A DNA stretch of 63,884 bases, filler included, from Chrysochromulina tobinii (Eukaryota), in the NCBI GenBank assembly GCA_001275005.1. It is 7 parts of 7 records of this genome, joined end to end, with 100 filler letters (N's around TTAATTAATTAA, not from the genome) between each part and the next. Parts side by side here need not be neighbours in the genome. Positions count along the whole stretch, not along the records: positions 43,059 to 53,049 come from JWZX01000657.1; 6 more parts are not named here. One strand, 5' to 3'. The notes beneath the pieces are model-generated. The model saw only the letters and a list, made by a program, of their open reading frames with translations. It was not told where the DNA came from and searched no databases. The position numbers and the translations under genes were made by a program. Shown here in pieces: positions 4,711-57,368 of the stretch (positions within the stretch are counted from its first letter, which is position 1; each line of letters opens with the position of its first letter).

Positions 4711-6231
4711 ATGCGCCTCGCAGTGGAGCTGCACCTCGCCGCAATCGTCTTGGCGGCTCCGTCGTCGTTGAAAGACATTTGCGGATGGCCGTCGCTGGCC
4801 CCCGGCGGCCTGTTCGGCCCGCCCACCGTCCGCCTAGCTCAGCGCATGCTCGGCTACGCCCTCGGTGACCCCTATGCGGTGGCGGACGGCAACTTCACCT
4901 CGGCAACGGTCGCAGCCATCGAGCAGTTTCAGAAGATGGCGAACATCAGTGCGAACGTGTCCACGCCGGGCCATCTAAACGCGGGGACCTGGCCCAAACT
5001 CGTCGATGCTTGCCTCACCGCGCCTCTGGCGGAGTCGAGTCAGCTCATCGAGGCAGCCCAGGATGCTCTCACGTTCAATGGCTTCGCTGCGCCGGTCACA
5101 GGTCATCTGGACGCGCAGACGGTGCAGGCCCTGAGCGCGTTCCAGCAGGCACGCGGCGCATCCGAGCAGCCTCCCGGAAGCGCCGACGCCGCCACCTGGC
5201 ATCTGCTCGCCACAGGCTGCCAAAGCGGAGCTGACGGCGGCCATTTTTGGTTCGATGCCGGCTGGCCGCAGGGCAACATGAGCGTCGAGAGCCTCTCGTG
5301 CATGCGCGAGCACGGGTTCGAGTTTGCGACGTTCGAGTGCTGGGTGGAGTCGAGCGGGCATGCGGGCAAGTTTTGGAGCGGCTGCCCCCAAAATATAGCC
5401 AACGCCCATGCAGCGGGTTTCGCTCGGGTCGGTGCGTACATGTACCCTGGCCGTAACGGCGACCCGACAGAGCAGACCCGATGGCTGCTAGGCAACCTGA
5501 GCGAGCACTCGGTCGACTTCGAGGCGGTCATGCTCGATGTGGAGGGGGGTGACTGGGCACAGCATAGTCACGAGGAGAATCGCGCGTTCATGCTTGCCAT
5601 CAAGGTGCGTGATTGCTGATGATGCTTGCCATCAAGGTGCGTGATTGCTGATGATGCTTGCCATCAAGGTGCGTGATTGCTGATGATGGCTAATGATTGC
5701 GGCGGATTGCCGACGCAGATTGTGCCGCTGATGATTGTCGCCATCCAGGTGCGTGCTTGCTAATGATTGCGGCGGATTGCCGACGCAGATTGTGCCGCTG
5801 ATGATTGCGAATTGGTATTGATGGCGCTTGATTGCTCTCGGCCATGTATGCAGTCCGTCCTGGAACAGGCTGGCGTGCGTTACACTGTGTACAGCGGGCG
5901 GAGTTGGCCTACGTACTTTGGGGACACGTTCACAGCCTTCAAGGATGCTCCTTTGATCTACGCCCACTACGACCTAGTGCCCTCCTTTTACGACGCCGTG
6001 GCCGCGCCCATGTACGGTGGATGGGAAGGGTGCGTGCAGCGGATTCGGCCTCTGACCGCCTCTGATCGCATCTGATCGTCTCTGATCGCCTCTGATTGCC
6101 TCTGGTCGCCTCTGGTTGCCTCCCTCATCAGGTACGTGGGCAAGCAGTTTTGGGACGGGCAGGGCGCCGAGTACCAGCTGTGTGGCACGGGCGCATTGGA
6201 TTGGGATTGGAGCCCCAAACCTTACTGGTGA
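4711..6231 (+). CDS. Secreted lysozyme: signal peptide, two peptidoglycan-binding domains and a GH25 (protist Lys-type) catalytic domain; 3 exons
   Basis: Exons 4711-5604, 5854-6029 and 6132-6231 splice in frame (389 aa). PG_binding_1 motifs DGNFTSATVAAIEQFQ and TGHLDAQTVQALSAFQ. GH25 motifs VMLDVEG, YAHYD, YGGW, GKQF. Confidence 0.85.
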
Positions 6232-17292: not shown

Positions 17293-19209
17293 ATGTCGTT
17301 CTGGGATACGCACGACGCTCTTCCGCGGCGCAGCACGACGGCCCTTGGCGGTTCGTTTGGTGGTTCCGCAAACGTCCGATCCGGCGCATGCAGCCCTGCA
17401 TGGCGCCGAGCGGCGCTGCTTGGTAGCTTGGTAGGTCTTGCTGTGGGAATCATGGTGCACAGCAACCGCTTCGGTGCCGTAGTCATTCGTCACGCAGCGA
17501 GCTCCTCCAAGATGGCTTCTCTAGCTTCTCTGGTCGAGCTATCGTCCAACGTGGCTTCTATGGCCGATCTATTGTCAGCCCACTCGTCTCTGCCAGTGCC
17601 AACGAAGACGCCATCGCCTACGCGCTCGCCCTCGCCACCTTCTCTTCGACCTATGCCGGTGGTTGTTGGAAGGCCTGCAATCGTCGCCGTGTGCGTGGGC
17701 GGTTGGCTGGAGTTAGCAACGCCGCGCCGCGGCCAGAGCCTGCGGGACCACATCCTCAATGTCATGCCGTCCGATGTGTTCGTGGCTGGCACGATCCGTG
17801 GCAACGTGACAGAGTCGCGCGTCGACGCGGCATTGGACGGGATCTCAGCTCTCGCTCCCTTTGCGTCAGCGTCGGTGATCCGTATGCCAAGGCCCAGTGA
17901 GCTACGGTCCGAGCTGAAAAGGTCGGGCCACTGGGAAGGCTTCAAACTCCAGGCGAGCAAGGGTGGCTCGGGCCGGTTCAATTGGGCCGACCCTAGTTTT
18001 GACGACCCCCGGAATTGGGTTCCAATCATGATGAGCCCTGCGCTGGGCAACCCAAACGGCAACACGCTGCAGGAGTTCCACTACCAGAGCCGGTGCATCG
18101 AGATGATCAATGCGCACGAGGCAAGCGGCGGCCCGCGCCGGCCAGCGCGCACGCCGTATGAGCGTGTCATGTTCACACGTCTTGAGTTCGAGTGGCTCGC
18201 TTCACACCCCCCTCTGCACCTGCTCGATCCAAAGTACCTCTGGGTACCCACTGGCGAAGACAACACCGGCGTGAACGATCGGCACTGGCTCGCGAGTCGG
18301 CGCGACGCGGAGGGCGTCTTCCGGCGATGGGACGCGCTCGTAGAGGGCAAGTTTCACGGCATCTTCTTCGCCACCTCGCAGGTGCGACCGCGGTGATTGC
18401 ATGCTGTTTGCCTCTTGATTGCCACTGAAGACCGCTGATTGCCCTCGCAGGTGCGACCGGTCTTCGTGTCGTCGGAGACCTTCAACAAGCTCCATCTGCA
18501 ATACCGCAAGGTGGGCGTGGCTCGCTTCCCCAACGTCGCGGCACTCACCTGTTGCGAGAGCTCATATGCCGAGGGGACTGGGGCGGCGGCGCGCCGCGGC
18601 ATGAAATGCTTTGCCAAGGCGTGCTTTCGCGCCAGGTGCCCGAGTGGGGCCCAGCTCCCGACGCCGAGATGCGCCCACAACGGCGCCACCGACGGCCCGA
18701 ACCATCTGGCCTTCAAGTACGTCGATGAGGGCCACTCGGCTCTGTTGCATGGGACGGCGCTCGCACTGCCCGGAGCCACCTGGGAGGTGGCGGACGATGC
18801 GACGCCGGGGCGTCTGCACATCCGCGTACCCGGGGCTGCGGTGGCTGCCGCCGCCGGGCGAGCCGCCAGCCACGGCGGCGGCGGCAGCACCAGCGGCGGC
18901 GGCGGCGGCGGTAGAGGCGGCATCGTCACCAGCGGAAGCGATGGCTCTGGCTTGCTTTATACGTGCAAGACGTGTGAGGGAGGGCCGGACGTACCAGATC
19001 CCGTCTCGATCAACGTGACCTCGTGTCTCTTCCGGAGGCATCCGTACGCTCACCCCACCCTCGAAGCAGCCCGCAAGGTGCACCCGTGCCGCTACTTCGA
19101 CATGGCGGTGCTCGCAACGGTCTGCGCGCAGCTCGGAACCAAGGAGGTGCGAACAGGCAACTTGGGCTGGTTTTGCAACGACGCCGAGATGCTGGCCACG
19201 GCACTATGA
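17293..19209 (+). CDS. Type II membrane protein, glycosyltransferase-like or unknown; 2 exons
   Basis: Exons 17293-18381 and 18451-19209 join in frame. TM near the N-terminus and a Pro-rich stem. YERVMFTRLE...HPPL...GEDNTGVNDRH motif. Confidence 0.65.
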
Positions 19210-19468: not shown

Positions 19469-20785
19469 TTATAGCTTATTGCGGATACAATCTGAGTAGT
19501 TTAGGACCGCATCGTCAACCACGCTCAACCGCCGCGGGATTCCCCGGCGCTCCAGCACCGTGTGCGTTGGCCGTTGCCGCCGTGGCTGCGATTCCGATTT
19601 ACGATGATCCAGGACGGCCAAGGCCGAGTCGCGAATCCATGCGCCCATGTGCGCATGCATCTGCTCGGCGAATAAAGCCTCGGGCAGCTGCGGCTCCGAG
19701 AAGAGCGCCACCTGCTCGCTGATATCGAAGCCGCGCACGCGCACTGGCACGTGCGGCGCGGCACGGCGCTCAGGCAGCCGGGCAGACCAGAATGGCGTAC
19801 CCGTGGCTTCGAGTCGGTCGTCCTCGCCGTACTGCGGCCCAGTGAAGTCGAGGACGAGTTCGCGCCCCGCGGCCGTGCGGCACCACACTAGCTGGTGCAG
19901 CGCGCCGCCGTGCGCTGCCTCGCGCGGACCCTCGGCAAAGCGCACGCGCTGCCGCAACCGGAGCGGCTGCGCGGGGAAAGGAGGGGCGACGACGCCAGGG
20001 TTGCTGTCGGCGGCGTGAGCGTCCTTGCCATCGTTGTCATCGGCCACGGCGGTCTCGACGGTGCAGCCCGCACGTGGCACCATGACATGGCGTACAAAGG
20101 GCGCGATCCGGAGCGCATTGACCATGCCAAAGGCGACGATCGGGCTGCCGTCGTCGTCGTCGAGCACGGCGAGCCCGTGTATCCCGACGAGGCTCCTCAG
20201 CGTGAGCAGCGCGCCCGTATGCAGAGCCTCGCACGAGTCGGTCGAGACGATCTTCCAGTAGAGGAGCTCTGAGGTGGCCGCATCGGCGGGCGCACCGTCC
20301 GGGTGCGGCGCCAGGAGCTCGTTGGGCAGCACGGGCGCGTTCGAGGTCTCCACGAAGACGAGCGCGGCCTGTGCATGCGGTACGAGCGCAGGCAGCTGCG
20401 GCGCGTCGAGCGCCGAAGCGCTCACGGGCGCGAGGCCGCCGCCGAGTGCGGCCGGCGCGGGCACGACGCGCGCGAACAAGGTCATGGGCAGCCGGTCGCG
20501 CGGCGGCTTGTGCTGCAGGTCAAGCGCCCACTGATCGCCAAGTCGCGTCGCGCCCGCGCCAGCGGCGACGAGGCTCGCAAAGTGTGAGATGGAGAGCGAG
20601 ATCGTGCGCAGCGAGGCGAGCAGCGGTGGCGGCGTTGCGGCGCGGCGGCACGCGTGCCAGGACGAGCGATGGCTCGAGCGGCGCGAGACGAGTACGGAAG
20701 CCATCCTGACGGCGTGTGAACAGAAGGAAGAAGAGTTCAGTCTCGGCGACTGGAACCCTACCATTTCGAGTGTAGCGGGACGCAT
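19469..20785 (-). CDS. Hypothetical protein
   Basis: 438-aa ORF with coding-like composition, divergent from enkurin. Confidence 0.5.
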   Translation of the reverse strand: MRPATLEMVGFQSPRLNSSSFCSHAVRMASVLVSRRSSHRSSWHACRRAATPPPLLASLRTISLSISHFASLVAAGAGATRLGDQWALDLQHKPPRDRLPMTLFARVVPAPAALGGGLAPVSASALDAPQLPALVPHAQAALVFVETSNAPVLPNELLAPHPDGAPADAATSELLYWKIVSTDSCEALHTGALLTLRSLVGIHGLAVLDDDDGSPIVAFGMVNALRIAPFVRHVMVPRAGCTVETAVADDNDGKDAHAADSNPGVVAPPFPAQPLRLRQRVRFAEGPREAAHGGALHQLVWCRTAAGRELVLDFTGPQYGEDDRLEATGTPFWSARLPERRAAPHVPVRVRGFDISEQVALFSEPQLPEALFAEQMHAHMGAWIRDSALAVLDHRKSESQPRRQRPTHTVLERRGIPRRLSVVDDAVLNYSDCIRNKL

Positions 20786-20891
20786 GTAACGTGAACGAGC
20801 TGGCCGTGAATCCTTTTTTCCAAAGCCTTACCGGCAAAGCTGTTGTTTCTCGTCAGTGCGGCCGCTTCTTGCTGGATCGCTGCGGTTGGCG

Positions 20892-33935: not shown

Positions 33936-34508
33936 GGGCGCGCTGCGGATGCTGGCCTACGCAGTATTTATCTGGGCATCTAGCATGTTCAACTACACCC
34001 GAGGTAGCGGGGGAGCGGCCGACGGGAGGCGGGGTCAAGGGGAAGGGCCTCCGGTACTTCGCACTTGTATACATGCGTTGTATGGGCAGGCATCTACGCA
34101 TTTGCCAGTAATATTAACGCATGGTTGAACACGAGAACGTGAATAAGCTGTGAAAAGCGAGAATTACACTCTCTTCTGACTTGTACTTGTTCTCGTGGCA
34201 CGACCTGGGGCCCTGGGGGCGTCTATGTATGGCAGGGCATCCAATTGCCAATGCGGCTGGGGCTGCGACCCTGCGGCATGGACCCTGGTCGCTGCACGCT
34301 GGTGCGTGGCCTCTGGGCCCTCGCTGTGGCACCCCTCGCCCCTGGCCAGGCGGGTACATGCTTAAGACTACCGTAACTGAGAAGGAAAAACCAAACTTTG
34401 GGAGGCAAGAAACCATCTTTGGCATTAGTCCTCACATCTGTCCTTCTATGGGGCGGCGGCGTGGCGCGCTCTCACCACCTCTTAGTCCTCCTCGTCTGCG
34501 AGAGCCAG

Positions 34509-35579
34509 ATGTATCACCAATACTTCTGCTCTTCTGCATGGGTCGTCTCGGCTTACGGCCTCGGTGGGCTCATCCTCACCCTCTGGATAGTGAATGCTTA
34601 CCTCAACGTGCAGCTCAACGCGTGGACAGCACGCTTCTACGACCTCATGCAGAACGCGACGAAGATGGAGCCGGGCGTGGTCACATTCGATGATGCGCAG
34701 CCGCTCTTTGTCGAATGGGCCGTCATGAGCGGCATCAACGTGTGTAGTAAGCCGATCATCAACTGGCTAACACGGCACTGGGCCTTCTACTGGCGCGAGG
34801 CGCTGACCGCCGACCTCCTGTTCCGATGGAGAAGCAAGGCGGGAAGCGAGAGTGCGCGCCGCATCGAGGGCGCGAGCCAGCGCGTGCAGGATGACTGCTA
34901 CCAGCTCTCCAGGTTCCTATGCGATCTCGGACAGGGGATCCTCGCCGCCTTTTTGGAGCTGATCACCTTCTGCCCGGTGCTCTGGTCGCTCTCATCGGGG
35001 ATCGAGGGGCTGCCCAACGGGCTGCTCATGTGGGCGGCCCTCGGCGGCTTCGTCCTCGGGTACGCTGTCTCCATCCTCGTGGGCTGGCGTCTAGTGAGCC
35101 TCGAGTACAACAACCAGGCCGCCGAGGCCGCTTTCCGCAAAGAGCTTGTGTACGCCGAGGATGAGGTTCAGGGGCACGGCGAGCTGTCCGTCAGCCATGG
35201 GCTCTTCCGTGCGCTGCGCCGTGTCTACTACACGCTGTTCGCGCATCTCCTCTATTTCGAGACGTGGAGCGCCCTCTTCCTCAAGGCGATGTCTCTCATC
35301 CCATTGGTAGTGCTCGCACCGCACGTGTACAATCGGAGCATCACACTCGGCACGTACATGCAGGCTGTGGGCGCGTTCAACAGCGTGACCGAGGGCATGT
35401 CCCAGCCCCTCAGCCGGTGGGTCGACTTCAACATCATGCTCTCGGTCGTCCGCCGCCTGCGAGAGTTTGAGAGCGCGTTGCCGCCACGTGAGGTGCTCAA
35501 AACCTATGATGAGAGCAGTCGGCTGATAGGCTCCGGCCCCGAGCCGGAGCTTCATGGAATGAGGACTATAGAGGAATAA
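34509..35579 (+). CDS. SbmA/BacA-like peptide transporter (ABC-type transmembrane domain with no ATPase domain)
   Basis: IEGASQRVQDD and LEYNNQAAEAAFRKELVYAED match SbmA/BacA signatures; ends SVVRRLREFE with no Walker motifs. Confidence 0.82.
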   Translation: MYHQYFCSSAWVVSAYGLGGLILTLWIVNAYLNVQLNAWTARFYDLMQNATKMEPGVVTFDDAQPLFVEWAVMSGINVCSKPIINWLTRHWAFYWREALTADLLFRWRSKAGSESARRIEGASQRVQDDCYQLSRFLCDLGQGILAAFLELITFCPVLWSLSSGIEGLPNGLLMWAALGGFVLGYAVSILVGWRLVSLEYNNQAAEAAFRKELVYAEDEVQGHGELSVSHGLFRALRRVYYTLFAHLLYFETWSALFLKAMSLIPLVVLAPHVYNRSITLGTYMQAVGAFNSVTEGMSQPLSRWVDFNIMLSVVRRLREFESALPPREVLKTYDESSRLIGSGPEPELHGMRTIEE

Positions 35580-43058: not shown

Positions 43059-45408
43059 ACGCGACTGACGAGCTGAAGCAAAAGTGGCTCCCGCCGCTCG
43101 TCTCCGGCGAGTTTACGGGCACCATGTGCCTGACGGAGCCCCAGTGCGGCTCGGACCTTGGGCAGGTGACGACGAACGCCAAGCCCAACGGCGACGGCAG
43201 CTACAAGATTAACGGCACCAAGATCTTCATCTCGTGCGGCGAGCACGACATGACCGAGAACATCGTGCACTGCGTGCTCGCGCGCCTGCCGGGCGCACCT
43301 GCGGGCACCAAGGGGATCTCCCTGTTCCTCGTGCCGAAGAAGCAGTACGCGGACGGCGCGGTGGGCGACTTCAACGGCGTCACGACCAGCCGCATTGAGG
43401 ATAAGATGGGTTGCCATGGCTCGCCCACGTGCCAGGTGAGGGACTGGCCTCTATGGCCTCTGATGGCCTCTGATGACCTCGTACCAGATTGAGTTCGAAG
43501 ACGCCCAAGGGTGGCTCATTGCCTCCAATTGCCGCTCATTGCCTCCAATTGCCTCTCATTGCCAGATTGAGTTCGAAGACGCCCAAGGGTGGCTCATTGG
43601 TACGGAGAACCGCGGGCTCAATCACATGTTTACGTTCATCAACACGTCGCGCGTGGGCACCGCGGTCCAGGTGGAGTCTGATTGCGGCTGATTGCGACTG
43701 ATTGCGGCGGCACCGCGGTCCAGGTGGAGGCAGCGCGTGGAGACCTCTCTGCCTTGCATGCAAGTGCTCACCACGGCGCCCTACCCTTTCCCCACCGCGG
43801 CACAGGGCGTGGCGGCGGCCGAACTTGCGTTCCAAAACTCGCTCTGGTACTGCAAGGAGCGTCGCTCGATGCGCGCGCTGTCGGGCGCCAAGGACCCCGA
43901 GCATGTCGCCGACTCGATCATTCATCATCCGTCGGTGCGCACGATGCTTCGGTTTCCGTCCCAAACTTGGTTCCCAAAAGGCGGTCTCCGTCCCAAACTT
44001 GGTTCCCAAAAGGCGGTCTCCGTCCCAAACTTGGTTCCATAACGGCGGTCTCCGTCCCAAACTTGGTTCCATAACGGCGGTCTCCGTCCAAGCTGCATGC
44101 TGAGTGCCCTCCCTCACGAGTGCATGCAGGTGCGCACGATGCTCCTGTTCCAAAAGGCGGTCTCCGAGGGGGGGCGCTCGATGGTGTACGAATGCGCCAA
44201 GCTCGTCGACAAGATGACGGACTGCGAGCGCGCTGGCGATCACAAGGGCGCGAAGGAGGTACGGTCTGATGCCTCTGATGGCCTCTGGCCTCTCATGGCC
44301 TCGAATGGCCTCGAATGGCCTCTCATGGCCTCGAATTGCCTCTGATTGCATGCGTGCTCGATCCAAATTGTGCATGCAATCAGGTCGATGAGCGCCTCGC
44401 GTTCCTGACGCCTATCCTCAAAGGCTTTCTCACCGAGGCTGGCAAGGAGGCCGCCGACCTTGGCATCCAGGCCTACGGTGGGCACGGCTACATCAAGGAC
44501 AACAAGGCCGAGCAGGTGATGACCGCTGATGACCGCCGATGACCTCTGATGGCCACTGATGACTGCTGATGACCGCTGATGACCGCTGATAACCGCTGAT
44601 GACCTCAGGTGTTCCGCGACGTTCGTATCGCGTCGCTCTGGGAGGGCACGACCCAAATCCAGGCGCTCGATCTCCTCGGCCGTAAGATCCTGCTGCAGGT
44701 GCGATCTCCTTTGATCTCCTTTCGATCTCATTTCGAGCTCATTTCGATCTCCTCATGCTCCCTTGATCTCCCTTGATCTCCCTCTGACCGAGCCTCTGGT
44801 CGAGCGTGCGAGCTTATTCACATTCACAGAAGCTCAAGCCCATCGGCGAGCACTGCGGCGAGCTGCGTGCGCTATGCATGCCGCTGCTCACCTCGGGCAA
44901 CGCGGGGCTCCGTGGACGTGCTTGGTCCCTCTTCTACCACACGCTCGAGTGGCAGTACCTCACGTACCGAGTCGCGTTCCGCTCGACGAAGGATAAAGAG
45001 TGGATCTCGTCGGCGAGCGTCGACTACCTCATGTGCGCGCGCCCACCACGGCGCCACACGCGCGCTCCGTCAGCGAGAGCTGCATGCATGTGCCCACCAC
45101 GGCGCCGTCGCGCGCCGTCAGGAGAGCCGCATGCATGTGCCCACCACGGCGCCCTCGCTTCCCTTGCCCACAGGTACTCTGGCTGGGTCACCCTGGCGGC
45201 CCACTGGCTGCGAATGGAGCAGGCGGCCGTGCACTCGCTCGCCAAGGGCGGCGACGAGGAGCCTGATTTTTACAACGCCAAGGTGCAGACGTCCGCATAT
45301 GTCTTCGACCGGCTGCTGGCGCGCACGCGCTCGCACAAGGCCGGGATGCTTGCGGACCTCGGCTCTGTCATGGCATGCCGCGCAACTTCTCTTCGACACT
45401 CGAGGTAA
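43059..45408 (+). CDS. Acyl-CoA dehydrogenase, 5'-partial, at least 8 exons
   Basis: Exons 43059-43435, 43566-43670, 43806-43934, 44130-44258, 44384-44515, 44609-44698, 44830-45032 and 45174-45408 join in frame. Motifs GTMCLTEPQCGSD, KIFIS, KMGCHGSPT, GGHGYI, WEGTTQIQALDL. The C-terminus is uncertain. Confidence 0.92.
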
Positions 45409-46368
45409 GCGAGCTCAACCCGAGCTCAACCGAGATCCGACCCACTGCCAATCAAGGCGCCGGCAGATGTCTCCACCGGCAGGGACGATCCAGGGGTGTA
45501 TCCAGGGGTGGACAGGGCGAGGGGCAGGCACAGGGCTCTCTCGTGATCTGGGACACTGTGTGGGCGTGCTGTGTACAGTAGGGACCCAGCGCGCGCCGCG
45601 CAGATGGGTGTGCGGGTGCGGTGTCAGTGAGAGCCCAGGTCCCCAGGACGGTCGTCGATCCGCTCTCCGAGATATGTGGAGTTTCACGCCTTTGGTTTAT
45701 GCGGAGACCTAAGGTGTGTCCGAGCAAGACAAGCGACCATACGCGGCGTGTCCTCTTCAGTTAACGCTCCGACATCGCTACCATGATCGCTACACAGCGT
45801 AACGGAGTCATGTTGGTTCGAACTTGCAACTTCGATGGTTGATGGTACCGAGCCGACATAAAACACCGACAGTTGCACCGCACGCGCGGTCGGCGGTGAC
45901 CGGTGTAATCTGCTTCGGCCAACAAGCGGACCCGGAAGTAGGGAAGTTGCCACGTTAGCGCCAGGCCCGCCAGCGCCAAACAGGTCGCACTCACACATGC
46001 ACTCACTGACAGCAGCGCAGCACACACTCCTCACGGCGCCATCTCCACCATCTCGCAAGTGCAGTGCCAATCACGCGCGATCCGATGACACGTGCTCGTC
46101 CTTGAACAGCTTCCACTTTGCGCCTCTCTCAAACCATAAACGGGTATGCTGTAAGCACATATGGCTCTCCCATGCCGAGCGACTGTGTGCTCTGGCCTCT
46201 TGCTCTGGCCTCTTGCCCGGCCTCATGCCCGGCCTCATGCCTGGGCCTTACAGTAGATGTTCATGAAGCTGCATGGAGCATGCATGCATTTGGCGTCATT
46301 ATGAAGCTGCATGGGGCATGCATGCACTTGACGTCATTCTTCTGCGTCGGCCGTGACGGCGCCTCAGT

Positions 46369-49300
46369 CTACAGCCGCGACTGTGGCACGAGGAGATTGC
46401 GGTGCGTGTACTTCTTCTTGCCCGAGTGGAACTCTCCCACGAGGTGTGACGAATCGGAGATGAGGCGGTTACGCGTGGTGAGCAGCCCTTCCACACCCAC
46501 AGGTCCTCGTGCGTGGATGCGCGAGGTCGAGATGCCCACCTCGGCGCCTAGCCCAAGCCGGAAGCCGTCTGCGAACCGGGACGACGCGTTGTGGAAAACG
46601 TCGGCCGAGTCGACCCCGTTTAGGAAGGTCTGTGCCGCCCTCGGGTCCTCCGTCACTATGACGTCGGTGTGCCCGGAGCCGTGCGCGTTGACGTGCTCGA
46701 TGGCCGCCTGCAACGAGGGCATGAGCTCGACCGCCATCAGATGCAATCAGCGGCCATCAGTGGCCATCAGAGGTCATCAGAGGCCATCAGAGGCCATCAG
46801 AGGCAATTAACGACACTCACCTGCACAGAGGGCACAAGCTCGACCGCCATCGCGAGCGCCCCATACTCGACGCGCAACGAGGCGGCGGGCGGCAAGCCGA
46901 AGGCGACGACCGCTTTGGGGCCGCCGTACAGGGTGACTTGCGCGTCGAGGACCGCTTCCACAAGGCGCTTCGCCGCGCCGCTGCCAAGGAGCGACTCGTG
47001 GATGAGTAACGTCTCGATTGCGTTGCATGCGGCCGGGTAGTCCTTCTTCGCGTCGATCGTGAGCGCGATCGCCTTCTCAAGATCCGCGGCCGCGTCCACG
47101 TACAGGTGGCAAATGCCGTCGGCGTGGCCGAGGGTTGGGATGCGCGTGGAGCTCATGATGTGCTGCACCATCGCGTTCGAGCCGCGAGGGATCACGAGGT
47201 CGATGTCCTTATGGAGGCGTAGCAGCTGGGCGATGGCCTCCCGCCCCTCCACAAACCCGAGCACGCTCCCGCCCACCCGACCAGCACTCGACCGCTCGAT
47301 GGCGGCGGACAGCACCTGATGATGGAGGCAATCAGATGCAATCAGATGCAATCAGGCGCAATCAGGCGCAATCAGACGCTCATGGAGGGGCGCGGACAGC
47401 ACCTTGTGAAGCACCGTGTTGGTGCGTAGTGCCTCCTTGCCGCCCTTGAGCAGCACACCATTGCCACTCGCCACCGCAAGCGCCGCCACCTGCGGCAGAA
47501 CGTCCAGCCGACTCTCAACGGTGTGAAGAGTAACCAAGGGCAATCCAGTGTAATCAAGGGAGATCACACCTGCGGCAGAACGTCCGGCCGACTCTCAAAG
47601 ATGACGAGTAATCAAGGGCAATCCAGTGTAATCAAGGGAGATCACACCTGCGGCAGAACGTCCGGCCGGCTCTCAACGGTGTGAAGAGTAATCAAGGGCA
47701 ATCCAGTGTAATCAAGGGAGATCACACCTGCGGCAGAACGTCCGGCCGGCTCTCAAAGATGACGAGTAGCACGCCGATCGGAACCGTCTCCTGCTCGAGA
47801 TCGCGCGAGATATCGACGAGATCGCGTCAGAGAGAGCGGTGGCGCCATCCGTGGCAATCAATGGCAATCACACCTGCTCGAGCACGAGCCCGGGCGAGAT
47901 CTCGACGGCAATCAATGGTAATCAATCGCAATTAATGGCAATCAAACCTGCTCGAGCACGAGCCCGGGCGAGATCTCGACGAGACGCGTGGTACGCCCGA
48001 GTGGATCTGATTGCGCGCCGAGGGAGCGGATGCCCTTGGCCACGTCACCTGATGAGGGAGGCAATCAGAGGTCATTAGAGGCCATCGTAGGCCATCAGCG
48101 CCCAGGGAGCGGATGCCACGTCACCGAGCTTCTTGGGCTGATGAGGGAGGCAATCAGAGGAGGGAGCAGATGCCACGTCACCGAGCTTCTTAGGCGTTAG
48201 CAGCAGTCGTTCGGCGAGCGCGTTGTTCGCCGCGTCGCCGCCCTCCTTTGCCTGATTCGCCTCCCTCGCGCTCGCAAACGCGGCCACGTCCTCCTGATTG
48301 GCAGATACGATCTCGCTTAATGGCAATCGATGGCAATCAATGGCAATCGATGGAAATCAGTGGCAATCAACGGCACGTGCCTGATTGGCAGCTACGATCT
48401 CGTTTACGTGCTCCTCGAGCGCATCAGCCATCGCCTTCAATATGTGCACGCGCTCCTGGTAGCTGAGCAGCTGCAGCGCGCGCGCCGCCGCACGCGCCGA
48501 CTGCGCCTGCGACTGCGCACTCGGCTGTGGGGAGAGGAGGGGGCGCCGTGGTGAGCACTCGCCTGCGCCTGCGCCTGCGCACTCGGCTGCCATCAGAGGT
48601 CATCAGAGGCCATCAGACGTCATCAGACGTCATCAGACGTCGTCGGAGGCCATCGGAGGCCATCAGAGGCACCCATTTACCTGCCGAGACTGGGCGATCT
48701 CGGCGGCGAGATTGCTCGCCATGGCGCTCCGGTGGTCGAGGAACACGGTGCCGAGGTCTTCACCGGCAACGAGACGGGCAATCGACTCCTGTGGGGAAGA
48801 GAGGAGGCGGGAGGGCGCCGTGGTGAGCTGTGGGGAAGAGAGGAGGCGGGAGGGCGCCGTGGTGAGCCCTTGCATGCCGGGTGTGCATGGACGATGGCGC
48901 CGTGGTGGGCCCTTGCATGCTGGGCTGTCAGCACTGTCCGCAGGTGGGTGGTACCTGTGCGAAGCCAGAGGCGATCACGACGGCGCCGACGCCCGATTCT
49001 GCCGCCTGGAGCGCAGCCTCCACCTGTGGGGAGATGGGGTGGCGCCGTGGTGAGCACTTACATGCAATCGGATGCAATCAGACTCCACCTTCGCTTCCAT
49101 GCCGCCGCAATTAGCCGCAATCAGCCGCAATCAGACGCAATCAGGCCGCAATCAGGCTCCACCTTCGCTTCCATGCCGCCGCGGCCGCGTTCGGACTTTT
49201 CGCCAAAGGAGATCGAGGCGAGGCTGTTGCTTGTCACTATGGGCAGAAGCTCGGGCGTCTCTCCCGGCAACGGCTTGCGAGCGTACCTGATGAGGGGCGC

Positions 49301-49969
49301 AATCAGCGGCAATCAGAGGTCATCATCCATGGGCCGAAGCTCGGGCGTCTCTCCCGGTCACGGCTGGCGAGCGTACACGCCAGACACGTCCGAGAGCAGC
49401 AGCAGCAGGTCCGCCTGCAGCTCGAGCGCGATCAGCACCGCGAGAGAGTCGTTATCGCGGAAAAGCGAGCGCTCCTCTGGGCGTGCGGTCACGTCGTTCT
49501 CGTTGATCACGGGCACGCCGCCCGCGTCGAGCAGCCAGCGCAGCGAGTCGCAGAAGCGCTCCTTGCGCGTGGAGGTCTGGAAGTCGAGCTCCGTCACGAG
49601 CAGCTGGCCGCACGCGACCGAATACTGGGAGAAGAGCGTGTCGTACAAGCCCATCAGCCCGCCCTGGCCCGCGGCGGCGCGAGCTCGCGCGGACGCCGAC
49701 GAGCCGTTGTGTCCGGTCGGGTTGATAAGGTGCGCGCGGATGCTCTTGGACAGCACGGCCTGCTCGTTGAGCCGTGTCGAGCCCACGCCAATCGCTCCGC
49801 TCGCGACGAGCACCACGCGCTTGCCCTGCAGGCGCAGCTGCGCGATCTGCTCCACGACCGAAGCAATGCGGCCGATGGCGACCGTGCCGTCGGGCCGAGA
49901 CACGACCGACGTACCGACCTTGATGACCACGGTTTTCGCATCCTTGAATGTCGCACGTACGTCGGACAT
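46369..49969 (-). CDS. P5CS: Delta-1-pyrroline-5-carboxylate synthase (fused glutamate 5-kinase and gamma-glutamyl phosphate reductase); 11 exons, 744 aa
   Basis: Exons 49969-49377, 49286-49163, 49023-48955, 48788-48681, 48524-48381, 48293-48182, 48048-47948, 47790-47728, 47489-47403, 47315-46821 and 46707-46369 total 2235 nt in frame. Motifs [51 protein letters not shown]. Confidence 0.95.
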
Positions 49970-50137
49970 GGCGCGGTAAAAGAGGGGCGGCTGGCTGGAC
50001 CTCGGCACGAGGACTGGCCGTCTCGTTTCATTACACGAAACTCGCGATGAAGAGGTTATGAAAAACGAACACAGAGGTGATTTCCCAGCCCAGTTTTTCA
50101 CAACTTCACAGCTTCTTTGCGCTTGAACCGATGTCGG

Positions 50138-51930
50138 ATGTTTCGAGCGTCGCGCCGGGGTCCTTCCGACCCTTCCGTCCCCAGATCTTCTGCCGACACC
50201 AGGGAGCTGTTGGACGGCGAGCAGTTTGGGAGCCCGAATGGTCAGGATCCGGTGGTGAAGCTGAACGTGTGGATCCGCAACATTTACGAAATCGACGAGC
50301 AGAAGTTCTCGTGGACTGGCAAGATTGATCTGGAAGCAGCATGGCACGACCCCACGCTGGTAAGAGATAGGCAAGATGGCGAGAACTGGCCAGACACGGA
50401 TAACGAGCTCTGGCCACCGCAGTGCCCGTTTGTTGCGGCGAAAACAAGCGATGGACGCCGCGACTGGGCATTGACAACCTGATTGAGAAAAAGGCTGAGG
50501 AGACGTGGTACAAGGTGTACGAGGAGACGAAACTGCACCGGCATAGCCTCGAGTCGCCGCTGGTGGTATTCCGGACCGTGATCCACGGCGTCTTCACCTT
50601 TGACTTCGATCCTCATAAGCTTCCGTTTGACGTGCAGGAGTTGCCTATCCGGGTAGTCTCCTACCGCACGAGCGCCGACCTCTCGGACCGGCACAAGCGC
50701 CGATTCGCGCGCCTCGTCTTCGACGGCCGCCCGGGATACCCGTCCAAGGTCTTTGGGCGCGCGAACCTCCTCGCGGGCCAATGGGATCTCGACGGTACGT
50801 GGGCGATGCAATTAGAGTGCAATTAGAGTGCGATGAGAGTGCGATGAGAGTACGATGAGAGTGCGATGGAGTGCGACTGAGTGCCCTTGATGGCCTCCCT
50901 CATAGGTGAGATCAAAGTGTACGAAGGGGAGACGTCCCAGCGCTCCAGCTACTGCCGATACCCCGTGGTCGAGCTTCGCGTCCGGATGCACCGGCGCGCG
51001 AGCTTCTACGTCTTCTCTGTCTGGCTGCCCAACTTTCTGCTCGTGACGCTCGCCTTCCTCGTGCTCACGATTACATGTAAGGAGGATAACGTGAGTGAGC
51101 GCGTCGGGCTGATCGTGACGCTGCTGCTCACGTCCATCGGCTACCGTGCGAGCATGGGGCTGCCGCGCACCTCGACCCTCTCGTGGCTCGATGCCTACCT
51201 CCTCGCCTGCATCGCCGCGCTCGTCACCCTCGCCGTGTTTGCACTGAATGCGAAGATCACGATCACCTCATGGAGGGCGGTTTCACAGCTAGGGCTCCCG
51301 TTGCTCGGTCTCATTGTCGTTCAGTTGCTCGGTCTCATCTGCCTCGATCACGCTTGCCGGCGCAAGCCTGACGGTGCGGTGGAACGCAAACGGCGCTCCA
51401 CAGTCGCACTCACCACGGCCATCTTCGTCGCCTTGGGCGCCGTCTTGGGCGCCGTCTTCATCGGCAATCCGACCCCAAACAATGAGCCTCTCAAGAGCCT
51501 GGTCGAGATCTGCTTCCTCATCTGGCTGCTCCTCAACTTGGAATTCTTTATGCTCTTTTTCTTCCGCTCGCCGCTGCTGCAGCCCAGTATCAACTGCGCA
51601 CCCGATCCGAGAGAGAGCCTGATTGCGGTGCCGATTGCGAAGCTGGCGGCTGCCGCCACCCATGGGCTCCATCAGAACGTGCCGGGCACGAGCGCTGTGC
51701 CGGGCACGAAACCAGCGCGAGCGGCAACCTCGCCGGCGCGAGATCAACATCTCCACAGGGTCGCTTTTTCAACCTCGACGCGCTCGACTCAGCGCTCGGC
51801 CACGCCGTCCAGTCAGCCTCTGCCCCGTGAATATTCACACCTGCTCCGACGCGGGTCGTCCATGTCCGAAAACTCCATCAGCTCGGTCGACTCCGAAAGG
51901 GGAAGGCGGTGGCGACGGGATGGGGGGTGA
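50138..51930 (+). CDS. Cys-less pentameric ligand-gated ion channel (Pro-loop family); one intron and one apparent frameshift
   Basis: WHDPTL, WTPRLGIDN, LPFDVQEL, M1 WLPNFL, M2 SERVGLIVTLLLT, M3 SWLDAY. Intron 50795-50905. The frame change near 50441-50444 is fixed by one extra A in an A-run. Confidence 0.8.
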
Positions 51931-52538
51931 GGGTGGAGGAGACGGTGGCGGCGGAGAAGGGGGGGAGGTGGCGGCGACGGCGGTGGCGACGGCACTGGCG
52001 GAGGGGAAGGCGCTCGGTCGACTCTTTCCGAAGTAGACCAGAGGCCCACCCTTGTCAGCAGTACAGTATTTTGAGAGGAGCCCGGGTGCCCGGGAGGTAT
52101 CGAAGCGTAGGCAATAGGGTGACTGTGCGGCCCCGCGCTCGGCGGCCCTCGCCGAGCCGTCTTGCGTCTATCTTGGCCCCGCCCCAACGCCAAGGGCTCC
52201 TATCTTAGCTTAGCCGATACTTTCACGCGCCGCGCTACTTCGTACCCAAGAGGGGGCGGGTTAAGGGCGGGGAGTTGGGCGGTCGGATTATATCTGGATT
52301 CGCACCACCGCGTCCTCTACCCTCAGAGATATCTGATTTCAAACTGAGTGATTTACCGTTACCCAACGAAGGGGGAGTTGGGCGGAGGGAAGGTCAGAAA
52401 GCGGAGGTGGTGCGCCGCGGCTGAATCTCATCTTGAGCAACGGCCAGATTACGTTAGGCAAAAGCTCGTCGTGCCGAAACGCGCCGTCCCGAGCGTCCAA
52501 ATGTAGTGCCGTCCTTGGAGCGTCGTCCCGAGCATGCG

Positions 52539-52911
52539 TTAGATCCCGAAGCCGCCCGTCACCTCGAGCGTATGTCCGGTGATGTAGGATGCGAGCGGCG
52601 ATGCAAGAAAGAGCATGCCCGCCGCCGCCTCCTCGACGGTCCCCTGCATGCATGCCATGAGGAGGCCATCAGCATGCAATGAGGGAGGCCATCAGCATGC
52701 GACGAGGGAGGCAATCAGTGGCACTCAGAGGCACTCAGCGGCACACAGCGGCACTCAATGGCACTCAGTGGCACTCAGTGGCACTCAGCGGCACACAGCG
52801 GCCATCAGAGGCAATCAGAGGGGCAAGCGCACTCACCTTGCGCGCGAGCGGTACGACCGCCTTGAGCGTCTCGGCTGAGCTCCAGATTTTGGCCACGTGC
52901 TCCGGGAGTCC
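52539..52911 (-). CDS. 3' end of a short-chain dehydrogenase/reductase (FabG-like)
   Basis: Exons 52911-52837 and 52643-52539 give VPLARK/GTVEEAAAGMLFLASPLASYITGHTLEVTGG. Confidence 0.85.
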
Positions 52912-53049
52912 CTGATGAGGGAGGTCATCAGCATGCAATGAGGGAGGCAATCAGCATGCAATGAGGGAGGCCACGTGCTCCTGGAGTCCCTGATGAGTGA
53001 GGTCATCAGTACTCATCAGTGCTCATCAGTGCTTATCAGTGCTCATCAG

Positions 53050-53149: not shown

Positions 53150-56100
53150 GGGGCGGGGAGGCAGGGATGGATGCCGAGGGGGGGGAGGGGGTGGCGCAGA
53201 GGTCCACTGCAAGAGGGCAGGGCAGCTCGTCGATCGGTTCGGACGGCGCGCGGCTCACGATCGGATTCGACTTGCGCGCCTTGCCAAGCACGAAGCACAC
53301 GCGCGACGACTGACGAATGTCTTCCTCGAATTGCGGCGACACGTCCAGGTCGGTGGCGCCGGTCTCTTCTTCGAGCATGTACTTGCGCGCGATGGCAATC
53401 GCTTTCATAGCCTGGTTGATGGCGGCCGGACCGGTCGCCACCACCTTGGGAGGCTCGCCGGACTCGCGCACCACGTAGCAGATGGCGCCTGCGACTTTGT
53501 TGGGCGTTGAGTCGGCCTTGACCTTAAGCAGGGGGTCATCGGAGGCGGCGACGTCGCTCACGCTCGCCATTGACATGTGCGAGTCGCCGGAAGAGCCGAG
53601 CCGAGGAGAGGCCGAGCGCGCGTACGGCGTCGATCGGGTCGAAGGACGCGAGCCCGAAACACCTGGTGCCTTGCCGCCGGAGCTGGGGGGTTGACCGCCA
53701 CGCCGGGCGCTATTAGAGTCGCGTGCGCCGCAAGTGCCGTGGCCGCCGCCGCCAGTGCCGCTGCCGCCGCCCTTGCCCTTCTCGCCACCGCCGCTGCCGC
53801 CGCCCTTGCCCTTCTCACCACCGCCGGGGCTTTCGCTGAATCCGGCGCCCTTGCCTCCGCTGCCGCCGCGTGGCGACTGAAGGGCGCCGGTGGAGCCAAC
53901 GCTGCCGCCGCCTTTGCCGCCGCCCTTGCCGTCGCCGCCGCCCTTGCCGCCCTTGCCGCCCTTGCCGCCGCCGCCGCCCTTGCCGCCCTTGCCGCCCTTG
54001 CCACCACTATGACTCCCTCGACTTGGAATACAAGATTTAACTCCCTTGAGTCCGGCCACGACCATGACTCCCTCGACTCCAACGTCCTTCCCCTTCAGGT
54101 CCAGCTCCGTGAGCGAGTTGGCGCGCATCTCCTTGATCGGGATCCCGTTGAACATCTCGATCTCGAGGTTGCCAAGGACAGCAGCTGCGAGCTGCACAGC
54201 GCCGTCGCCCGCAATTTTGTTGTGGCGGACGTCGATGCTTGTCAGCCCGCCCATGACGGGTATGAGTCCCGCCACGACCATACCTCCCTCGACTCCGACG
54301 CACTTCCCCTTCAGGTCCAGCTCCGTGAGCGAGTTGGCGCGCATCTCCTTGAGCGGGATCTCGTTGAACATCTCGATCTTGAGGTTGCCGAGGACAGCGG
54401 CTGAGAGCTGCGCAGCGCCGTCGCCCGCGATGTTGTTGCAGCGGACGTCAACGCGTGTCAGCGCGCCATTGACCAACAGCGCATCTGCGATGGCTTTTGG
54501 CCCTTCAGGGGTGGAGACCGGCTGGTGCCTGTAGCCGTTCCAATGAGAATGGCCGCCAATCTCATTGGATGAGAGATTTAACGCTGTCAGCGCGCCTGTG
54601 ACGGCCATCATAGCCGCCACAGCGTTTGCTCCAACTGGACCGATGCCGTTGTCCTTGAAGTTGAGCGACGCGAGCTTGGTCTCCTTGTTGCTCTGGATGG
54701 CCTCGCAGACTGCGCTTAAGCCCTCATCCTTGAGGTCGTTGCAGGACAAATCCAGGGCCGTCAGTGCGCCGTTGACGCCAAGCATGTCTGCCACATGCTT
54801 AGCGCCTGCTTCCCCGCCAATATTGTCGCGACCAGACAGATCGAGCTCCTTGAGCGTCTTGTTCTGTTTGAGAGCTTCGCAGATGGCCTTGGTGCCCTCC
54901 TCCCCTAACTCGTTCCACGCCAGGGACAGCTTCGTCAGCGCGCCATTAACGCGCAGAGCGTCGGCAATTGCTGTGATCCCTTCTGCAGTGTAAGTTCCAC
55001 GCCCATCACGATCGAGGCCGCACAGCTGGTTGCTGGAGAGGTCCAGGCTCGTCAGCCCGCCTGCGACGGCCACCATGGCCGCCACAGACTTTGATCCCAC
55101 TGGACCAATGCCGGTGTAACTGAATTTGAGCGACGCGAGCTTGGTCTCCTTGTTGCTCTGGATGGCCTCGCAGACTGCGCTTACGCCCTCATCCTTGAGG
55201 CTATTAGAGGACAAATCAAGGGCTGTCAGCCCGCCCATGACGGGTATCAGACCCGCAATGACCATGCCTCCCTCGACGCCGACGCCCTTCCCATTCAGGT
55301 CCAGCTCCGTGAGCGAGTTGGCGCGCATCTCCTTGATCGGGATTTCGTTGAAATTTTCGATCTTGAAGTTGCCAAGGACAGCAGCTGCGAGCTGCACAGC
55401 GCCGCCGCCCGCCATGTTGTTTTGGCGGATGTCGACACGTGTCAACGCGCCATTAACGCGAAGGGCCTCGGCGATTGCAGTGATGCCCTCTGCAGTGTAG
55501 GTACCACTGGCCATTTGGGTCACTCCGCAGAGTAAATTATTGGAGAGGTCCAGGCTCGTCAGCCCGCCGTTGACCAAAAGCATATTGGCCACATGCTTGG
55601 CACCTGCTGACCCTCCGATGGTGCCATTGTACCTGCTGCTGATGTCAAGCTCCTTGAGCGTCGTGTTCTGTTCTAGTGCCTCGCAGATGGCTTTGGTGCC
55701 CTCCTCCTCCAACTCGTTTTGGGCGAGCGACAGCTTCGTCAGCGCGCCTGTGACGGCTACCATAGCCGCCACAGCGTTTGCTCCAACTGGACCGATGCCA
55801 TTGTTCTTGAAGCTGAGCGACGCGAGCTTGGTCTCCTTGTTACTCTGGATGGCCTTGCAGACTGCGCTTACGCCCTCATCCGCGAGGTCGTTGTAGGACA
55901 AATTCAGGGCCGTCAGCCCGCCCATGACGGGTATGAGTCCCGCCACGACCATACCTCCCTCGACGCCGACGCCCTTCCCCTTCAGGTCCAGCTCCGTGAG
56001 CGAGTTGGCGCGCATCTCCTTGAGCGGGATCTCGTTGAACATCTCGATCTTGAGGTTGCCGAGGACAGCGGCTGAGAGCTGCGCAGCGCCGTCGCCCGCG

Positions 56101-57368
56101 ATGTTGTTGTAGCGGACGTCAACGCGTGTCAGCGCGCCATTAACGCGCATGGCGTCGGCGATTGCAGTGAAGCCCTCTGCAGTGTAGGTGCCATGTAGGT
56201 AGGTGCCATGTGAGTTGCGGTGGGCAGGAATGAGATAAGAAACGAGCATGGCCCCAGGCCCACAAAGCCTCTCTTTGCGCAAGTCGAGCTCCGTCATGGT
56301 GTCCTCCCGTATGTGCTGCACCGGAATGCCGCATGCCACACCTGAGCCCGCACAGGCGACGGCTGCGATCGTCAGCTTCAACGGTGCCTCTCCGTCGCCT
56401 GATATGCAGCTGTCCAGAGCAGCCTTAGCAGTACCACGAAGCAAGGATCCTTCCTGGCCCTCGTCGTTGTTCTCGTCGTTGTCCTCGTCGTCTTTTTCAT
56501 CTAATGTCGCGGCGCGTACTTTCGCCACGTCCACCACAAAGCCGTAGCCACGAAGGCGCGCCAGCCCTGGCAGCATTCGCCCCGCAAGGGCCGTGTCCCC
56601 GGGACGGCCGGCCTCGATGAGCAGCTCAACGTCCAGGTCGGTGATCTCTTCCAGATGTGTGGGTGCCGGCTGCCCGCGGCCGCGGCACAGGCGCGAGCAG
56701 AGGACACGCCGTGACAGCGCACGCCAAAAACGATTCACGCCCTTGAGCTCGCACAGCGTGGCCACGTCCACAATGGCCAGAGCAGCCTCCCTGGCATCCT
56801 CCGTGGCTGGCACCCCCGAGAGCGAGGGCTGCCGCAGAGGTGCGGGCGGTGCCGAGGAGCTGGCCGCGCCGAGCTGCTGCGGCGCCTCGTAGCCTTCTGG
56901 CAGAAACGCCGGCTCAGCGAGAGCCTCCGCGCGCTCCTCCGCGCCATCAAAGTCACCACTCGCGCCTAGCACCACGCAGAGGTCCTGAGCGCGCTGGCCG
57001 TTGAGCCGTCGTGCGATCGCACGCTGGATGTGCTCGAGCGCCCTATCGGCGTCGAGAAAGAGGGCACCCTCGACGAGCTCCATCAGCTGCGGCATCGAGC
57101 ACTCGTCGACACTTGGCCGTGTGGTGCCAGGATCACTCAGCTTCCCCAGCAAGTCGAGCGTCCAGGCCGCAATTTTTGGCACTGGGTACACGCCATCCTC
57201 GGGAGGGGCGTCGTCCATGAGATCCTTCAAGGTGCCCGCATTTCGCGCGGCCTCGCGCGGCCACGTGACCTCTTCTCCCCCTCGCGCTCGCACGCGGATT
57301 CGCTCGTCGGCCGTGCCCGTTGTAAGAGCGTCAGTTGCGCTGGTGCCGAGTGCGTCGCGTGCGGCCAT
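53150..57368 (-). CDS. Fusion protein: Skp1-like, F-box-like, RI/NLRC3-type LRRs, Gly-rich linker and SpoVS domain; 3' end in the gap
   Basis: AARNAGTLKDLM...YPVPKI...LMELVEGALFLD...IARRLNG...GDF (Skp1-like). VDVATLCELKGVNRFWRAL (F-box-like). LTxLDLSxNxI...AIAxAL repeats. LKVKADSTPNKVAGAI...GPAAINQAMKAIAIAR (SpoVS). Confidence 0.8.

Follow-up and report, generated by a model that had tools for sequence, protein, structure and literature searches.

Introns of Chrysochromulina tobinii that carry copies of their flanking exons: a possible origin by templated DNA repair

The origin of new spliceosomal introns is a long-standing question, and surveys hold transposons that leave short target duplications of fixed length responsible for most mass gains. 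Introns of Emiliania huxleyi reportedly contain 10-11-bp tandem repeats, not tied to exon duplication or intron birth. Repair-born introns have precedent (PMC4202315, PMC3443670), and for Daphnia pulex a published repair model already covers presence/absence alleles, gains in parallel and breaks that recur inside young introns (PMC4202315). Described introners include a marine Chrysochromulina family (family 5) with a 4-bp TSD and no TIR, and an E. huxleyi family (fam24) with '10bp terminal direct repeats'. In a search that was thin on subscription journals, we found no publication on the introns of C. tobinii that are described here.

The window, that is the whole stretch of DNA analysed, is 63,884 nucleotides long, and its positions 43059..53049 are a single contig between N linkers. 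The original prediction had placed 20 introns in these 10 kb, and all of them are present: seven in an acyl-CoA dehydrogenase (ACAD) gene, ten in a P5CS gene, one in a channel-like gene and two in an SDR gene, where one is truncated at the contig end. In L007, an independent assembly 99.7-99.96% identical to the window contig, the SDR has 4 introns. Removal of the introns was said to restore in-frame enzymes, and it does so: P5CS with its 10 introns out encodes 744 aa, identical to a relative's protein in 597 of 747 columns (80%), and spliced ACAD runs for 454 aa without a stop. The intronless genes claimed elsewhere in the window were also recovered, as 11 stop-free, Pfam-supported ORFs totalling 26 kb. 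Checking the junctions by RNA succeeded in part. Six ACAD joints were seen as GT..AG in 3/3 RNA runs and in 0/1 DNA run, and excision of ACAD intron 3 and P5CS intron 10 was deduced from RNA contig pieces, giving RNA support for 8 of the 20 introns; the other 12 are based on reading frame and homology. One P5CS donor (intron 5) is GC. Read contigs show single bases missing from the window at 45373-45409 and 50436. The genes and introns are listed below with position and strand; modules A and B are two shared acceptor modules, found in mixed combinations across genes.

43059..45410 (+): ACAD gene, 3' two thirds, 7 introns; the 5' 489 nt are in L007 (Pfam, RNA contigs, homologues)
43436..43565 (+): ACAD intron 1; a 45-nt copy (43/45) across the spliced junction, with filler on both sides; the distal AG is the one used (RNA contigs)
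43671..43805 (+): ACAD intron 2; filler, copy of the upstream exon, acceptor module A (RNA contigs)
43935..44129 (+): ACAD intron 3; 20-nt downstream-exon copy forming the donor, and a 32-nt tandem unit with exon sequence (RNA contig pieces)
44259..44383 (+): ACAD intron 4; filler, exon copy not significant (RNA contigs)
44516..44608 (+): ACAD intron 5; nearly pure 10-nt filler flanked by CAG|GTG repeats (RNA contigs)
44699..44829 (+): ACAD intron 6; filler with a unit that matches the upstream exon over 11 nt, p=0.047 (RNA contigs)
45033..45173 (+): ACAD intron 7; three units of module A (RNA contigs)
46372..49969 (-): P5CS gene, 744 aa, 10 introns (homology of the spliced protein)
49287..49376 (-): P5CS intron 1; first 48 nt a downstream-exon copy (44/48) supplying GT, then filler and a module B acceptor
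49024..49162 (-): P5CS intron 2; filler, 30-nt copy spanning the donor, module A
48789..48954 (-): P5CS intron 3; three units of module A, exon copy not significant; unit number differs in L005 and L008
48525..48680 (-): P5CS intron 4; filler, 32-nt spliced-junction copy, module A
48294..48380 (-): P5CS intron 5; GC donor, filler, 26-nt upstream-exon copy forming the acceptor; L005 has one more 81-nt unit
48049..48181 (-): P5CS intron 6; downstream-exon copy forming the donor, internal copy, module B; 57 nt longer in L005
47791..47947 (-): P5CS intron 7; internal upstream-exon copy, 35/35; 74 nt shorter in L005
47490..47727 (-): P5CS intron 8; three 80-nt units (filler plus exon copy), a 29-nt copy forming the acceptor; L005 is without the intron
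47316..47402 (-): P5CS intron 9; exact 11-nt downstream-exon copy forming the donor, filler, module B
46708..46820 (-): P5CS intron 10; filler, 31-nt upstream-exon copy (27/31) forming the acceptor (RNA contig pieces)
50795..50905 (+): intron of the channel-like gene; 11-nt filler and module B, present in L008 too (gene label tentative: the exon tested has no Pfam match)
52644..52836 (-): last intron of the SDR gene; made of filler and repeats of module B, exon copy not significant
52912..53049 (-): third intron of the SDR gene, 193 nt in L007 and here truncated by the contig end; filler, a copy of 24 nt from the downstream exon, module B
5605..5853 (+): predicted intron of a gene with a peptidoglycan-binding domain; a unit of 32 nt (upstream exon, donor and filler) occurs three times
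6030..6131 (+): predicted second intron of the peptidoglycan-binding-domain gene; filler and module B
18382..18450 (+): predicted 69-nt intron outside the main contig, the cleanest case; filler between perfect 17-nt repeats with CAG|GT

Comparison of introns with their flanking exons, as the original prediction proposed, found a significant copy of the intron's own flanking exon in 15 of the 24 introns tested (p<=0.01 against random windows from its own gene set). The same threshold upheld the figure of nine of ten for P5CS; among the 20 introns of 43059..53049 the count was 13, and copies were not significant in 9/24 and 7/20, respectively. The duplications are long and variable, as anticipated: 22 copies span 15-48 columns each and are 91% identical overall (607/665); a further copy, exact and 11 nt long, lies in P5CS intron 9. 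Together, exon copies occupy 695 of 3453 intron bases (20%). Junction-anchored copies of at least 9 nt occurred in 11/24 own pairs versus 22/552 non-own pairs (p=6e-10). These anchored copies, 9-48 nt long, furnish six donors and five acceptors; the other 13 introns have 0-7 nt per side. Long repeats on both sides of an intron were present in 0/24 of those tested, and the 18382 intron, found separately, has a repeat of 8+9 nt, with both splice sites derived from the duplicated CAG|GT, and taking it out restores a 629-aa ORF. Thirteen copy mismatches were polarised by an outgroup, whose base equalled the exon base at 8 and the copy base at 1. Filler-to-copy joints show weak microhomology, with a mean of 1.8 nt vs 0.84 (p about 0.04, n=9). 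Extra copies at existing acceptors start with AT, CC, GG or GA, which means that a GT is not required for copying as such. Many internal copies appear to be later additions, and they still vary between strains.

The filler has the period of about 10 nt that had been described, with 46 successive TGA spacings of 10 and none among the exon spacings, and its orientation favours the sense strand by 55:3. Shared modules placed 92 of 276 intron pairs above the best shuffled control, against 2/276 for the reverse complement, and the best pairs align only partly, through filler and 25-50-nt modules and not end to end. Modules from one gene were not more alike than those from different genes (p=0.46), and such free mixing is what a genome-wide pool predicts. 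The idea that an intron is copied from its neighbours in one transcript is unsupported (within versus between genes, p=0.46; adjacent pairs, p=0.62). In DNA contigs, bins with modules and filler reach about 200-1900x the depth of single-copy bins. The filler variant differs from intron to intron, which suggests that much of the filler grew locally after birth and makes a single telomerase-like template unlikely. The end of L083 has the same layout with another filler unit, and the haptophyte loci L010, L012 and L013 each have their own filler.

Intergenic DNA, of which about 14 kb was covered, held one of 59 module matches. Introns are concentrated in few genes (10 in P5CS, 1.6 expected), and the 5' ends of genes are spared (P=6e-5), a lead drawn from five genes with a post hoc threshold and approximate CDS lengths, in a test that omitted two L007 genes whose first introns lie, by eye, at about 370-400 nt. 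Phase 0 was found in 18/24 introns, and the upstream exon ends in AG or GG in 17/24. Scans for short motifs gave 0, 0, 0 and 1 match in viral contigs and 2 matches in prokaryote genomes, taken as chance.

The original prediction was to be refuted by intron positions conserved in distant relatives; this check did not refute it, since none of the ten P5CS sites is occupied in the closest relative (80% aa identity). Its P5CS is found as two ORFs (P0001 and P0316) on a 14.4-kb contig, which together span the gene with a single break at a site not in the window, hence the count of 0/10; their genomic origin was judged from this intron-like break. Intronless sequences that look like transcript contigs (L001-L004, L009 and L024) were excluded as genomic outgroups. 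ACAD sites 1-4 are read through in ORF P0137. Two lineages at greater distance do have P5CS site 8 occupied (L010/L011; ORFs P0003/P0318 end at this site), and the intron in L010, a distant haptophyte, is unrelated in sequence (score 7.5, as by chance) and has a 14-nt repeat of its own, 13/14 identical. On these comparisons, the intron positions are lineage-specific, and the introns are best read as spliceosomal introns confined to the C. tobinii lineage.

Among strains, L005 differs from the window by 12 SNPs in 1347 exon positions (99% identical). It has an exact empty site at P5CS intron 8, on a single short-read contig in which gain and loss are not separable; the intron concerned carries a 32-nt repeat, and loss or collapse over that repeat is possible. 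Indels of at least 10 nt occur in 7 of the 8 introns covered in L005, and the six besides intron 8 differ by whole units. Two strains besides that of the window have the same exon copies, including their mismatches.

Hallmarks of mobile elements were sought in the introns. No TIRs had been noted, and 0/24 introns exceeded the control (own ends scored 4-7; control mean 4.8, max 10.5). All six intron ends examined for a terminal hairpin fold no better than shuffles (z>=0.04), and intron ends vary, with no constant termini seen. An Rfam search returned one chance-level match only (E 0.4), and a tRNA search of L007 returned 0. The window holds no polymerase, reverse transcriptase or template RNA, with no reverse transcriptase among 23 scanned ORFs, and the notion of a dedicated intron-generating 'system' is unsupported.

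Lineage-restricted introns that combine an exon copy with a shared repeat, one of them missing in a near-identical strain, point to error-prone DNA repair copying pieces of other introns as the likely source. The full form of this reading, templated break repair with a back-slip of 10-50 nt, in which a common pool of introns is the source and selection the filter, we rate as an even call. A DNA break or stalled copying step within an exon would start the process; repair would copy a piece of another intron from the same genome and rejoin 10-50 bases behind the start, and this back-slip would leave the exon copy as a target duplication. The filler would come from the genome's own high-copy intron pool, which would make an element-encoded enzyme unnecessary. 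Selection would remove insertions that are antisense or not exactly spliceable. Strain differences suggest that copying may recur at existing introns, as a nearly neutral change that would bring in further exon copies, filler and acceptors, and that recombination between repeats may expand an intron or delete it exactly. The junction-anchored copies, the 18382 intron, the empty sites in the relative, the L005 allele, mismatch polarity, module mixing, high depth, the extra copies that start without GT and the L083 layout all support repair. Weak joint microhomology, the introns without a significant copy, the filler variants particular to each intron, the single short-read contig behind the empty allele and the occupied site 8 in L010/L011 count against it, as does the lack of an enzyme or template in the window. 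Random repair should also place modules in intergenic DNA, where they are nearly absent; gene clustering and 5' sparing hint at a link with transcription that plain repair does not explain. As to the distinct slippage or template-switch mechanism first proposed, a copy-and-slip-back origin fits; the general repair model is already published for Daphnia (PMC4202315).

An enzyme could instead have driven copy-and-paste with variable target duplications. The route might be target-primed reverse transcription, acting on excised intron RNA or on a SINE-like RNA with the acceptor module at its end; a non-autonomous HUH (Replitron-like) element is the other candidate. The long variable duplications, the constant acceptor end where the donor comes from the copy and the sense-only, gene-only distribution suit this proposal. 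So does the behaviour of Replitron-1, whose insertions follow RG, have a single orientation and carry duplications of variable length (PMC10288648), set beside the AG/GG exon ends here, though RG is ordinary splice context as well; the C. tobinii genome has yielded one Replitron protein (PMC10288648). Yet mirror-image introns exist, in which the copy is the acceptor and the insert the donor, others are module-free (18382, P5CS 5, 8 and 10), and there is no tRNA or Rfam-level RNA head, hairpin above shuffles or terminal repeat. We consider this route somewhat unlikely. An older burst of short-TSD introners, followed by slippage and unequal exchange that doubled exon ends, filler and splice sites until the outer copies took over in splicing, seems unlikely to us. 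Many marine Chrysochromulina MAGs have reported introners (PMC9860276), strains differ in their internal copies and filler numbers, nine introns lack a copy, and the copies are 9% diverged versus 1-3% between strains, all as such a history would have it. Against this, the copy starts exactly at GT with no remnant of an earlier donor in P5CS 1, P5CS 9, SDR 2, ACAD 3 and the 18382 intron, so that the burst needs two coincident events; the exact empty site falls at an intron with a 32-nt repeat, and C. tobinii has 0 introner families in the published survey.

Two further options, ancient introns that relatives have lost and repeats that are artefacts of short-read assembly, are largely refuted and in our view very improbable. 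Site 8 is shared with two distant lineages, and all assemblies compared are short-read, with DNA contigs that break inside repeats; but the closest relative shares 0/10 sites, the L010 intron is of unrelated sequence, L006 and L007 both reproduce the window contig, copies and mismatches recur in two other strains, and the introns are removed exactly in RNA. Returning to repair, a more speculative version, which we regard as doubtful, is a self-feeding intron factory with no element-encoded enzyme, in which host repair patches gene-body breaks with intron RNA (or intron DNA in transcribed chromatin). If true, existing introns would template new ones and the process would be active in natural strains now; it would account for sense-only, gene-only, 5'-sparing insertion and for long variable duplications, and would be invisible to introner surveys that require end-to-end similarity. 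The C. tobinii introns offer unusually long origin footprints, a high-copy repeat pool and strain differences down to an exact empty site. As this is a cultured, sequenced species with many environmental strains, intron birth, growth and loss could be counted and an enzyme sought.

Several described systems share features with these introns. Replitron-1 of Chlamydomonas reinhardtii (PMC10288648) likewise shows orientation-specific insertion after RG and variable-length duplications, but Replitrons are 0.9-3.6 kb long with constant termini and a hairpin, none of which was seen here. Non-LTR/SINE retroposition also leaves a variable-length target duplication, but its tRNA- or RNA-derived head was not found. 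Short-period repeats are concentrated in haptophyte introns both in E. huxleyi and here. Tandem duplication of an AGGT-containing exon segment (PMC3443670) would likewise give both splice sites from duplicated CAG|GT, as in the 18382 intron and P5CS intron 8, whereas only 20% of intron bases here are exon copy and foreign filler lies between copies. With introners (Gozashti 2022, 2025; Roy 2020) the introns share lineage specificity, splice site(s) from the duplicated target, phase-0 bias and sequence common to unrelated genes. They differ in that TSDs, in the published parts available to us, are fixed per class at 3-8 nt and here vary from <9 to 48 nt, and in that similarity is modular, not end to end, in a species listed with no families. 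With the Daphnia introns born at staggered double-strand breaks (Li et al. 2014, PMC4202315; PMC3443670) they share junction direct repeats, parallel gains at one site and repeats within young introns; the presence/absence alleles of Daphnia have a possible counterpart in the one exact empty site on the single L005 contig. The repeats here, however, are 10-48-nt exon copies in up to 10 introns per gene, and the insert is high-copy, strand-specific filler with shared acceptor modules in place of unique DNA. The introns of C. tobinii thus resemble both the repair-born introns of Daphnia and introners, but fit neither.

The stretch at 43059-53049 is a single contig, bounded by N linkers, which carries genes for an acyl-CoA dehydrogenase (ACAD), P5CS (top match with a species name Prymnesium parvum, 62%), a channel-like protein and a short-chain dehydrogenase (SDR). 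Five of six window proteins were present in the protein collection, and two of these, both single-exon, shared 90% clusters with named Chrysochromulina tobinii proteins, which makes the source C. tobinii or a sibling. The 20 introns claimed for it in the original prediction were confirmed as real. Six ACAD exon pairs were joined at GT..AG in 3/3 RNA runs and none in the DNA run, and contig pieces supported two more introns, the 195-nt third one of ACAD and the 113-nt tenth one of P5CS, giving RNA or contig support for 8/20 introns. Removing its ten introns leaves a P5CS of 744 aa, identical to a relative in 597/747 columns. As two near-identical independent assemblies (L006 and L007) reproduced the contig at 99.7-99.96% identity, and two other strains had the repeats in common with it, the repeats are not assembly noise. 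At 45373-45409 and 50436 the window is missing single bases (seven C, one G) that 4/4 runs contain; these are assembly errors that shift the reading frame of ACAD and of the channel-like gene. The stretch at 46150-46340, which separates the 3' ends of these ACAD and P5CS genes, is rich in 12-nt and 38-nt repeats and has GT and AG bounds on the + strand; no skipping of this stretch was seen in the RNA-run contigs.

Copies of flanking exon were scored against 400 random coding windows per intron in 24 introns, namely these 20 (the two SDR introns in their L007 form) plus four others, two of them additional SDR introns of L007 and two located at 5605-6131. An algal gene with two peptidoglycan-binding domains (4711-6230) contains two filler introns. 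Fifteen introns scored at p <= 0.01, including nine of the ten in P5CS, as had been predicted. A copy of at least 9 nt was anchored at the splice junction in 11/24 introns, versus 22/552 non-own pairings (p = 6e-10). Six of these introns start with a downstream-exon copy that supplies the GT and finish in insert-borne sequence, and five finish in an upstream-exon copy that supplies the AG. At copy/exon mismatches the outgroup base agreed with the exon eight times, the copy once and neither four times. One further predicted intron lies outside the 24-intron set:

18382-18450: predicted intron, 52 nt of filler flanked by perfect 17-nt repeats containing CAG|GT

Two further introns predicted on the - strand of L007 (~2634-2735 and 4960-5046) were left out of the statistics; one, in an FKBP-like gene, has a GC donor, and the other has filler.

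The filler is a 10-nt unit based on TGA, in a variant local to each intron, with a sense:antisense ratio of 55:3 in introns and 1:2 in exons. Module A, whose core CACCACGGCGCC is followed by a pyrimidine tract and CAG, was present in 6/24 introns. Module B, which is CCTCCCTCAT or a variant of it, was present in 7/24. This sharing is strand-specific: 92/276 intron pairs exceeded the best shuffled control, and 2/276 did so in reverse complement. Terminal inverted repeats (TIRs) were not found on the introns tested. In the DNA contigs, bins with modules or filler had a depth ~200-1900x that of single-copy bins, a ratio that is not a copy number; very roughly, the pieces may run to thousands of copies. 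At the end of a phage-like viral contig (L083, 3874-4049), two 39-nt copies flank four 10-nt units followed by module A, probably host intron DNA at a chimeric contig end. Intergenic TTGCGTA-type tandem repeats in L007 (~20570-20830) bear no relation to the filler.

Of the 59 module matches in the window, one lay in intergenic DNA, which amounted to ~14 kb after rough masking. P5CS has 10 introns versus 1.6 expected, and 26 kb of other ORFs have none; the C. tobin genome averages one intron per gene, according to the available text of Hovde (2015). This gene-only, clustered, 5'-sparing pattern suggests a link to transcription. Other ORFs in the window include a leucine-rich-repeat ORF of 1424 aa that carries a bacterial SpoVS-like domain towards the C-terminal end (53150-57368), an intronless SbmA/BacA-like transporter ORF of possible bacterial origin (34377-35579) and a long ORF with a 63-nt coding repeat x25 and no Pfam match (8697-10296).

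The closest relative (80% aa) encodes P5CS on a 14.4-kb contig as two ORFs (aa 2-420 and 420-744), its single break lying where the window has no intron, so that 0/10 window sites are interrupted; introns of other haptophyte loci sit at different positions. The sites are lineage-specific with the exception of site 8, the position of P5CS intron 8 (47490..47727, -), where L010/L011 have a 90-nt intron and the homology of ORFs P0003/P0318 stops. This occupied site counts against a clean story. As the L010 intron has no sequence in common with the window's and carries its own 14-nt repeat, it is read as a putative parallel gain at a conserved CAG|GT; such gains are common in Daphnia (Li 2014, PMC4202315). 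Two ~200-nt P5CS introns of L010, a distant haptophyte (~1330-1530 and ~2588-2789), are alike (93/122 aligned) and, judged by eye, open with 6-10-nt exon repeats; they are probably a conventional introner family. In another haptophyte (L012 ~2065-2155, L013 ~2308-2403), a P5CS intron has a different repeat filler, and no exon copy was seen in it.

Strains differ by turnover of units. L005, a genomic contig since it spans the divergent promoter, has 12 SNPs in 1347 exon bases relative to the window and lacks P5CS intron 8 exactly; 6/7 of the remaining introns covered have indels of 10-81 nt. L008 differs in 3/4 introns. One crossover between the outer copies in the window does not account for the L005 exon. 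The empty site of L005 may have arisen by two-step collapse, or by assembly collapse over a 32-nt repeat.

The chances are about even that these introns were born by templated repair. DNA synthesis at a break would jump to another intron and copy filler from it, in some cases together with an acceptor module; the strand would then rejoin 10-50 nt behind its start, leaving an exon copy; selection would retain only sense, exactly spliceable products. That staggered breaks yield duplications is established (PMC8355091). The event would recur, nearly neutrally and frequently, at existing introns, which would yield the compound introns ACAD 1, P5CS 4 and SDR 3, where a new acceptor follows a copy without the initial GT. 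The interpretation originally proposed was partly supported: its long variable duplications and lack of TIRs stood. What the data show is splicing, junction copies of exon, strand-specific modules common to several introns, lineage-specific sites and turnover of units among strains; the route itself is inferred. Templated repair has weak points: microhomology support was marginal, copying in cis was not supported, no candidate enzyme was found among the scanned ORFs, and the distribution within genes hints at a transcriptional link. An enzyme-driven route with variable duplications, by intron-RNA retroposition or a Replitron-like element, is a less likely alternative. An earlier burst of ordinary introners, remodelled afterwards, seems rather unlikely. 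That the introns are old, or an artefact, is very improbable: site 8 is occupied in L010/L011, but all ten sites are uninterrupted in the closest relative, and an artefact is opposed by the agreement of L006/L007 and the repeats in two other strains.

The footprints are unusually long, and variation among strains makes intron birth testable here. Literature searches yielded no published description of these introns; preprint supplements or authors' sequence files may list related families. In the 2025 survey (Gozashti 2025, PMC12130899) C. tobinii has 0 introner families and E. huxleyi has 3, and Gozashti (2022, PMC9860276) places introners in marine Chrysochromulina MAGs. The introns work like the repair-born introns of Daphnia (Li 2014) and resemble introners in taking splice sites from the target. 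They differ from the described introner classes in having no end-to-end family, fixed short duplication or TIR, and are not members of them.
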